Source of the DNA: a virus
Lineage: Monodnaviria; Loebvirae; Hofneiviricota; Faserviricetes; Tubulavirales
DNA length: 7,677 nt
Strand: one strand, 5' to 3'
IMG/VR virus record: IMGVR_UViG_2675903650_000001
Part shown: positions 4,402 to 5,613 of the stretch, piece after piece
Layout: the number at the start of each line of letters is the position of its first letter
Position numbering within the stretch: the stretch's first letter is position 1
Translations under genes and position numbers: made by a program
Notes under the pieces: model-generated
The model's database searches: none
Told to the model about the DNA's origin: nothing
What the model saw: only the letters and a program-made list of their open reading frames with translations

Positions 4402-5613
4402 ATGCCAGTTATCACGGGTAATCTGGGGCAGGGTAAAGGCATTGTTGCAGCTTATTTTGCCTCACTTTATTATCGCCGTGGATTGCGGGTTGCAGCAAAT
4501 TTTCCGCTTAACACTGAATGTATGTCATCAGGTTCGGATAACCCCGTTACGGTTATTCCCGCCATGCCCCGCATTGAAGACTTTGAGCTTCTTGGTCGTG
4601 GATGTCCTGAAAATGAAAAAACACGCTTCGGGGCGTTATTTCTTGATGAGTGTGCGACATGGCTGAATACCCGTGGTTTTGCCCGTAAGGACAGATTACC
4701 GTTAATTGACTGGCTGATACATTCCCGTAAGCTGGGCTGGGATGTTTATCTGATTTCACAGCATGAAGATATGATTGATTCCCAGATAATTAAGGCGATG
4801 GGGGCTAAAATTATTCGCTGCCGCCGTCTTGATGAATTACGTGTTCCTGTGATTACGCCACTGATGGAATTATTCAGACCAGGAAAAACAGGGGTTGCAT
4901 CAGGCAAAAGGGGGATTATTCCTCATTACGTGGCTGCCAGTACGTTTCTTTATGACGGCACGATTCACGCGGCACGTCGTCCCGTAGATAAAATCATTAT
5001 CAGGGCTGCGGATTATTACAACGTTTACGACACTAATTTCATTTTCTCTGACGGAATGGAGCTGCTTAATGGCCGTTTTGTGGATATGCGTGCTGTTTAT
5101 TCTGTTTTGCCCGGGCGCACACTTAAAACAATGAATCCGTTATCTCAACAACCCGAAAAAAAGGCCACCCCACAGAAAAAGCCGTGGGGCAAGCTGATTG
5201 CCTTTCTTTTCCTCGTCACCGCGATGATTGCCGTTGCCCGACATTATTTCTCCGGCGATCGGGAGGCTAGTGCCGCTGTCCCTCCTGTGCCTGAAAGCAC
5301 CGTGACACCTGCACATCCTTTGCCTGCGTCTACGGTTGTATCAGAGCTGAGACAGAAAAAACCAGATGTGCTTCCGGTATCAAAGGAGTGGCGGCTTGCC
5401 GGATATGTCAGGGGAGCAAGTCCTTATTTTGTGCTGCTGGGTCCGGCGGGTCAGGTGCGACGTTATACCGCTTTTCAGCCATGGAACGGCAGCGCCACGG
5501 AACTGAATGTTGACGGTGAAAAAGTGACGTTCTGGTCAGGCTCATCGGGAACGGCATCAAAGGGGGATGTGCTGACTGACAAAATGCTTTCGTTTGATGT
5601 GAATGGTAAATAA
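4402..5613 (+). CDS. Phage assembly protein gI-like (Zot-family ATPase)
   Basis: N-terminal P-loop-like GNLGQGKG. By eye, strong similarity to Ff pI blocks: [12 protein letters not shown] versus LDECGTWFNTR, and [21 protein letters not shown] versus [21 protein letters not shown], plus YCRRLD-like [10 protein letters not shown]. Transmembrane segment [16 protein letters not shown]-run SD at 4391-4395. Confidence 0.85.
5131..5613 (+). CDS. Putative gXI-like protein from an internal in-frame start within the gI-like gene
   Basis: In-frame ATG at 5131 gives [35 protein letters not shown]..., a basic segment followed by the transmembrane helix. This parallels Ff pXI, which starts at Met241 of pI just before the transmembrane segment. 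Positional inference only. Confidence 0.35.

Follow-up and report, generated by a model that had tools for sequence, protein, structure and literature searches.

In P-loop nucleoside triphosphatases (NTPases), the lysine of the Walker A motif, GxxxxGK[S/T], is followed by a serine or threonine. A comparison of more than 3000 P-loop catalytic sites found this Ser/Thr to be strictly conserved, as ligand #4 of the Mg2+ ion and hydrogen-bonded to the Walker B Asp; the main exceptions are several families of nucleoside monophosphate (NMP) kinases, where the residue is Gly and a water molecule provides ligand #4 (PMC9599734). In the case of the filamentous phages, residues K14, D88, E89 and C90 of the M13 assembly ATPase pI are each essential for phage production (PMC5408679), and Q126 is an ATP-contacting residue (bioRxiv 10.1101/2022.09.21.508815). 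The cytoplasmic domain of the pI of the Vibrio phages VFJphi/fs2 is reported to show ATP hydrolysis in vitro, whereas the CTXphi homologue Zot is reported to be inactive, and transplanting its residues into M13 pI kills the latter (bioRxiv 10.1101/2022.09.21.508815). We analysed here gene I of a 7,677-nt stretch of DNA, the IMG/VR virus record IMGVR_UViG_2675903650_000001 (hereafter the window), which covers the greater part of a filamentous prophage of the Ff-like type from Escherichia coli. The gene (4402..5613, + strand) encodes a pI/Zot assembly ATPase of 403 residues with a glycine in place of the Ser/Thr that follows the Walker A lysine.

The Walker A motif, or P-loop, is found at 4417..4440 on the + strand, where the codons ggt aat ctg ggg cag ggt aaa ggc are translated into G6-N-L-G-Q-G-K12-G13. 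The glycines G6 and G11 and the lysine K12 of the consensus are kept, and the final position, where the Mg2+-coordinating Ser/Thr is expected, is occupied by Gly13 (GGC, 4438-4440), so that GxxxxGK[S/T] is not matched. In the BLASTP alignment with M13 pI (31% identity, E=2e-34), Gly13 pairs with T15 and Lys12 with K14, the last residues of the M13 P-loop 8-GKLGSGKT-15. The original prediction, made from the letters of the window alone, had described this substitution, given GKLGSGKT as the Ff motif and called the remainder of the protein pI/Zot-like. All three statements hold, the second in agreement with the published M13 sequence (PMC5408679), the third by a match to the Pfam family Zot (PF05707; 37.3 bits for a cut-off of 20.3, E=2.5e-9, residues 5-144), which answers the profile check proposed with it, by a match to PHROG 1675, 'morphogenesis (protein I of M13)' (E=1.2e-49), and by the alignment with M13 pI itself. 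It had also been considered that a shifted alignment might place a canonical Walker A elsewhere in the N-terminus. However, a regular-expression scan for [AG]xxxxGK[ST] found no match either in the pI protein or in the six reading frames of the window. A GGGGG run resembling a Shine-Dalgarno sequence lies upstream of the start codon ATG at 4402, and a TAA codon stands in frame two codons 5' of this ATG, so that the open reading frame (ORF) 4402-5613 cannot be extended. An upstream start or a second Walker A motif was therefore ruled out by this stop codon together with the negative scan.

Apart from Gly13, the residues needed by M13 pI all have counterparts in the window protein. The Walker B motif, A78-L-F-L-D82-E83 (4633..4650, + strand), aligns with LLVLDE of M13 (D88/E89) and is followed by Cys84 (4651-4653), the counterpart of C90; Gln120 (4759..4761, + strand) corresponds to Q126, and R142 to R148. 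Gln120 and the Walker A lysine are invariant in unfiltered family alignments of 30 and 53 sequences. The lysine is also invariant in a larger set of 341 sequences described below, where its invariance is partly by construction since those sequences were selected on GK. The likeness to Ff pI extends to the whole layout. The ATPase domains are 31% identical; both proteins have their P-loop at the N-terminus, a Cys directly after the Walker B hhhhDE, a conserved Gln, a single transmembrane helix and a periplasmic C-domain, and the gene order gVI-gI-gIV is shared. Among the closest cultured relatives are the Zot-like pI proteins of VFJphi/fs2, at 32-35% identity; unlike the window protein, these have the canonical GKLGSGKS.

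The predicted structure is consistent with these alignments. The predicted layout is a cytoplasmic ATPase domain (roughly residues 1-245), then a transmembrane helix (roughly 262-283) and finally a periplasmic C-terminal domain; in the AlphaFold2 (AF2) model, the N-domain has confidence values (pLDDT) above 90 and a hydrophobic helix of 22 residues (262-283) precedes a beta-rich C-domain. A Foldseek search with the model returned as best match the N-domain of Neisseria meningitidis Zot (2R2A, E=1.4e-5), and also RecA, the STIV packaging ATPase B204 and HerA, while no kinase was found in the top 50 matches listed. On this model the N-domain belongs to the additional-strand catalytic-glutamate (ASCE) class, RecA/FtsK-HerA-like with a catalytic Glu after Walker B, and does not match the kinase fold. 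The Neisseria domain is the only solved structure of the family, determined without nucleotide; it shows weak profile similarity at Walker A/B and differs by its identity of 15-16% and by its Walker A, GTPGSGKT. It was also the only match in a sequence search of the PDB, which gave nothing significant (E=0.19).

Could the glycine codon be an error? The original prediction had allowed for this, as ggc is a single transition away from agc. The E. coli 100416 chromosome carries a gene I with 100% nucleotide identity, GGC included, and several independent IMG/VR contigs, among assemblies from different projects, carry the identical gene. Copies with 99.6% protein identity encode Gly13 by GGT, relatives at 70% and 49% identity by GGG, and one at 38% by GGT. 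In our first protein search every full-length homologue, from 34% to 98% identity, had GKG, and Gly is present in all 67 distinct sequences of the clade to which the window belongs (see below), with three synonymous codons. Because the assemblies agree and the synonymous Gly codons turn over, an error is untenable, and that part of the original prediction is rejected. Gly13 is reproducible and inherited, and is neither a chance resemblance nor an assembly artefact. Decay of the gene in a defective prophage would be the other trivial explanation. However, the ORF is intact, gene I is annotated as an intact coding sequence by the Prokaryotic Genome Annotation Pipeline (PGAP) in the 22 complete genomes with full-length matches, and it shows strong purifying selection. 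Constraint is highest in the ATPase domain, with a dN/dS of 0.047-0.048 against 0.27-0.29 for the transmembrane/periplasmic part (relatives at dS of about 0.4-0.5). We consider the probability that Gly13 reflects either an error or a pseudogene to be negligible.

We then asked how the residue is distributed in the family, using 341 distinct N-domain sequences assembled from the protein search, the 150 best representatives of 50%-identity clusters, 80 loci of GTDB species representatives and about 90 IMG/VR loci. Relatives of the window are over-represented in this sample, in which 153 sequences have Thr after the Walker A lysine, 98 have Ser, 88 have Gly and two have Asn. On a neighbour-joining tree built without that column, and approximate at these distances, the window falls in an all-Gly clade of 67 distinct sequences, with identities as low as about 35%, that come from Escherichia, E. 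albertii, Salmonella, Edwardsiella, Enterobacter and Plesiomonas-like sources. The recurrence of GKG within a clade, which the original prediction had proposed to look for, is thus clearly established. Eleven more all-Gly lineages are present, and Fitch parsimony requires at least 12 changes between Gly and other residues. Several of the small lineages are closer to a GKT sequence than to any other GKG sequence (67% against 63% identity for P0169, 60% against 52% for P0068 and 56% against 46% for P0215), and in four of them Gly has been kept across internal divergence to 65-90% identity. Of the 141 nearest cluster representatives, about 25 have GKG and two have Asn, so that the Walker A consensus of the family appears looser than the literature states. 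Outside the big clade, GKG is found in about 8% of the cluster representatives, in 3 of 79 GTDB loci (Comamonas, Azospira and Duganella) and in 5 of about 60 IMG/VR loci. From these counts, GKG would occur in 4-8% of M13-type pI lineages beyond the big clade, and it appears to have arisen about a dozen times. In the sequences compared here the variant was seen only in prophages and metagenomes. All of the cultured phages that were matched (Ff, IKe, I2-2, If1, PEar, fs2, VFJ, Vaf1 and Ralstonia phage 1) have GK[ST] and do not exceed 42% identity, and we found no mention of GKG in pI in the filamentous-phage literature searched.

The two Asn proteins are of some interest in themselves: P0146 (GKLGAGKN) and P0209 (GKLGGGKN) each have a non-hydroxyl residue after the Walker A lysine and are nearest to GKS/GKT relatives.

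A glycine tolerated so often might be expected to leave its mark elsewhere in the domain. We went through the N-domain alignment column by column, setting the big GKG clade, the small GKG lineages and the sequences without GKG against one another, and no column was found to co-vary with Gly13 across independent lineages. Asp82, Glu83 and Asn89 do not vary in any of the three groups. The big clade, and with it the window, replaces R51, D54, R130, H177, K/R212, Q213 and W198, the first six of which are conserved elsewhere in the family, M13 pI included. The small lineages, on the other hand, are ordinary GK[ST]-like proteins at all of these divergent columns and share none of the big-clade substitutions. 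This indicates that Gly at the end of the P-loop does not need a remodelled site.

The only candidate for a hydroxyl supplied from elsewhere was a Gly/Lys-rich loop at residues 159-171 (4876..4914, + strand), which contains the tripeptide GKT, occurs in the big clade only and, with pLDDT below 50 at 163-167, is predicted to be disordered. The insertion itself (159-169) has a length of 8-11 residues, and columns 161-166 are gapped in all sequences outside the big clade, M13 pI among them. Its composition, flexibility and restriction to the clade would suit a replacement for the missing Ser/Thr, or a cryptic second P-loop in the same role. However, Thr163 is only 55% conserved within the clade, where Phe, Tyr or Ser are found instead, the loop is missing from all 11 small GKG lineages, it does not match [AG]xxxxGK[ST], and, as said above, no N-domain column follows Gly13. 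The 'PGKTG' loop was therefore rejected as compensator, and we regard any explanation of this type as very improbable.

Taken with the retention of Lys12, Asp82, Glu83, Cys84 and Gln120, the repeated occurrence of Gly without compensation leads us to favour, with a probability of about 0.62, the view that selection keeps Gly13 as a genuine trait in a lineage of filamentous prophages from Enterobacteriaceae and that the pI carrying it is still a working nucleotide-dependent assembly ATPase. Lys12 and the backbone amides of the P-loop would hold the beta and gamma phosphates as usual. A water molecule would fill the position of the Ser/Thr hydroxyl around Mg2+, as in the GKG P-loops of the adenylate-kinase type; this water ligand, as well as the retention and the rate of ATP hydrolysis, we infer. 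The invariant Walker B Asp82 would hold the Mg2+-ligand water, and Glu83 would act as catalytic base to activate the attacking water. Hydrolysis, perhaps slower or more tightly gated by partners than in M13, would then drive assembly and extrusion through the secretin encoded by the phage itself. The original prediction had offered a real catalytic variation, with ATPase activity altered, or lost with a scaffold role retained. Its first half stands as a trait of the lineage, fixed in the 67-member clade, and altered or slower catalysis seems possible from the sequences; loss of the ATPase is not favoured, in view of the catalytic residues kept and of a dN/dS of about 0.05 in the ATPase domain against 0.28 beyond it.

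Several points weigh against a working ATPase. In other P-loop NTPases, replacement of the Ser/Thr after the Walker A lysine abolishes activity, and Gly at this position has been argued to suppress hydrolysis by water (PMC9599734). T15 of M13 lies outside the residues mutated in pI (PMC5408679). The six family-wide residues lost by the big clade suggest that its nucleotide site may be remodelled. Finally, the phage is known here from prophage genes alone, not as virions, and a tblastn search of 50,697 phage records with the window pI and two other GKG lineages found no cultured GKG phage.

These same facts could be read as the signature of a protein that binds ATP but has lost hydrolysis entirely or nearly so. 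Such a pI would serve as a nucleotide-dependent switch or scaffold, with extrusion powered mainly by the proton-motive force or by partners, and the glycine would have evolved as an adaptation to chronic life as a low-output prophage. The Ser/Thr is indeed held to be necessary for hydrolysis by water, and in NMP kinases the Gly blocks futile ATP hydrolysis (PMC9599734). CTXphi Zot, a pI homologue encoded like the window protein by a dif-integrated prophage and with an off-consensus Walker A, can moreover lack ATPase activity (bioRxiv 10.1101/2022.09.21.508815), and the loss of several otherwise conserved polar residues in the big clade points the same way. The deviation of Zot is nevertheless of another kind, with Pro at M13 position 10, Tyr for the Gly before the Lys, bulky Phe residues in Walker B and no equivalent of Q126, while its Thr is kept; the window protein deviates only after the Lys, and its Walker B and Gln120 are canonical. 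In addition, Glu83 and Asp82 are invariant in every GKG sequence, although the catalytic Glu usually drifts in pseudo-ATPases, the small GKG lineages retain all the residues lost by the big clade, and the low dN/dS of the ATPase domain speaks for a constrained function. Loss of hydrolysis thus appears to us rather unlikely. We still hold a working assembly ATPase to be the better account, and the stronger claim, that the GKG proteins are fully competent Mg-ATP-hydrolysing ASCE motors without a hydroxyl after the Walker A lysine, we put forward only tentatively from these comparisons, at somewhat under even odds.

As a precedent, working GKG P-loops are well documented only in the NMP kinases of the adenylate kinase type (GxxGxGKG), which likewise have Gly after the Walker A lysine. 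They belong to a different class and fold, whereas the model of the window pI is of the ASCE type with a catalytic Glu83 after Walker B, and they transfer the phosphate to a nucleotide and not to water. Their P-loop reads GKGT, while in pI the residue after Gly13 is Ile, Leu or Lys and never Thr, and the window protein has neither a LID nor an NMP-binding domain.

Two catalytic residues are regarded as strictly conserved in all P-loop NTPases, and the Ser/Thr next to the Walker A lysine is one of them; the only exception recognised for it is that of the NMP kinases, in which the attacking group is not water (PMC9599734). The pI family provides a clean and recurrent natural case of Gly among hydrolases of a class for which no exception has been acknowledged, in a membrane-anchored ASCE assembly ATPase and fixed in a long-lived clade. 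Should the GKG proteins hydrolyse ATP, the role given to the Ser/Thr hydroxyl would need qualifying; should they not, filamentous-phage extrusion could use ATP binding alone or another source of energy. Fully competent motors would be a repeatedly evolved counter-example to the indispensability of Ser/Thr in P-loop hydrolases and to the proposed universal [Ser/Thr]-Asp(Walker B) proton relay, or would show instead that a Mg-bound water can stand in for this relay. The Gly13 lineage thus offers a natural test of the role of this residue, which can be approached by complementation of M13 amber-I mutants. On the practical side, motif filters that require GK[ST] would miss, or call defective, 4-8% of pI lineages, as well as an entire group of prophages from E. 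coli, Salmonella, Edwardsiella and Enterobacter, among them those of enterotoxigenic strains like E24377A.

The E24377A strain carries a second type of enterobacterial GKG prophage (NC_009801.1, 1703183-1704463), with the Walker A GKMRNGKG, in which Arg replaces the middle Gly. This type has its own secretin, and 22 of the 5426 complete E. coli genomes carry it, with as many as eight places in one genome. YpfPhi/CUS-1, in which particle production is abolished by disruption of YPO2279, was a candidate for a GKG phage with experimentally shown productivity. We had considered that the P0038-type prophage might be CUS-1, and rejected this, as it is an E24377A-type prophage with its own secretin; the UPphi phages were likewise discarded as relatives, being IKe/I2-2-like and of a different group, and described in a paper without discussion of the Walker motifs. 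A related GKG phage of the P0038 type is carried, with a copy of ISEc31, on a 9613-bp circular 'plasmid', pJNE25-005_3 (NZ_AP045060.1), in a complete E. coli assembly. Its gene I is 93% identical to that of the E24377A type and its ORFs are fragmented. The molecule may be a replicative form or a low-quality consensus, and the fragmented ORFs and the insertion sequence (IS) make it weak evidence for the former.

Ff phages produce a second protein, pXI, from an internal in-frame start of gene I. The window gene has an in-frame Met244 (ATG, 5131-5133) located 18 residues before the transmembrane helix, comparable to M241 of M13 and without a clear Shine-Dalgarno sequence.

Among 5426 complete E. 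coli genomes, 25 carry gene I, each at one to four places. In the E. coli 100416 chromosome, two identical 8.74-kb copies of the window phage are arranged head to tail beside hipBA. Within the region 2414000-2437000 the tandem copies occupy positions 4110-20852, and the second copy stops 54 nt short of a dif site with one mismatch (20906-20933). Tandem copies at dif are typical of filamentous phages that integrate by XerCD, and the arrangement suggests XerCD-type integration as in CTXphi. The window phage differs in this respect from Ff, which are episomal F-pilus phages.

The morphogenesis set of the window is complete and Ff-like, with gVIII-, gIII-, gVI-, gI- and gIV-like genes, and the order of the module (Phage_Coat_A protein, gVI-like ORF, gene I, secretin) is the same in related prophages. 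At the left end, an ORF for a GPA-type replication endonuclease (22-1578) is cut by the window start; the complete protein has 666 residues in E. coli 100416, and the GTG at 22 is consequently not its true start. Small ORFs lie between this gene and a probable major-coat-protein gene (2349..2609, + strand), proposed from a weak PHROG match and its position ahead of the gIII-like gene. The latter (2661..4025, + strand; Pfam Phage_Coat_A) encodes an adsorption protein with Gly/Ser-rich linkers, and the tandem repeats of the linker region at 3278-3529 have periods of 15, 30, 39 and 78 nt and yield long spurious ORFs on the opposite strand. Directly 5' of gene I is a gVI-like minor coat protein gene (4025..4384, + strand; PHROG 1944), with the same gVI-gI synteny in fs2, If1 and PEar6. 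The gIV-like secretin gene (6712..7677, + strand; Pfam Secretin, E=5.5e-25) is truncated where the window ends; it encodes the outer-membrane partner of pI and corresponds to a 402-residue GspD-like coding sequence in E. coli 100416.

Between gene I and the secretin gene, positions 5627-6673 consist of about 3.1 tandem copies of a 339-nt unit that are 94-98% identical. One unit less is present in E. coli 100416, where the two genes are separated by 760 nt instead of 1099 nt. A search of Rfam gave no match for the unit, and its single-stranded DNA showed no excess folding energy (z=+0.9). In about 260 E. coli genomes, small plasmids (1.4-7 kb) carry a segment that matches the first 57 nt of the unit at 96-98%, and we take this segment to resemble the region beside ColE1-type origins that holds primosome assembly sites. 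The repeat might be a complementary-strand origin, and the many ORFs found on both strands of 5627-6673 are probably artefacts of the repetition.

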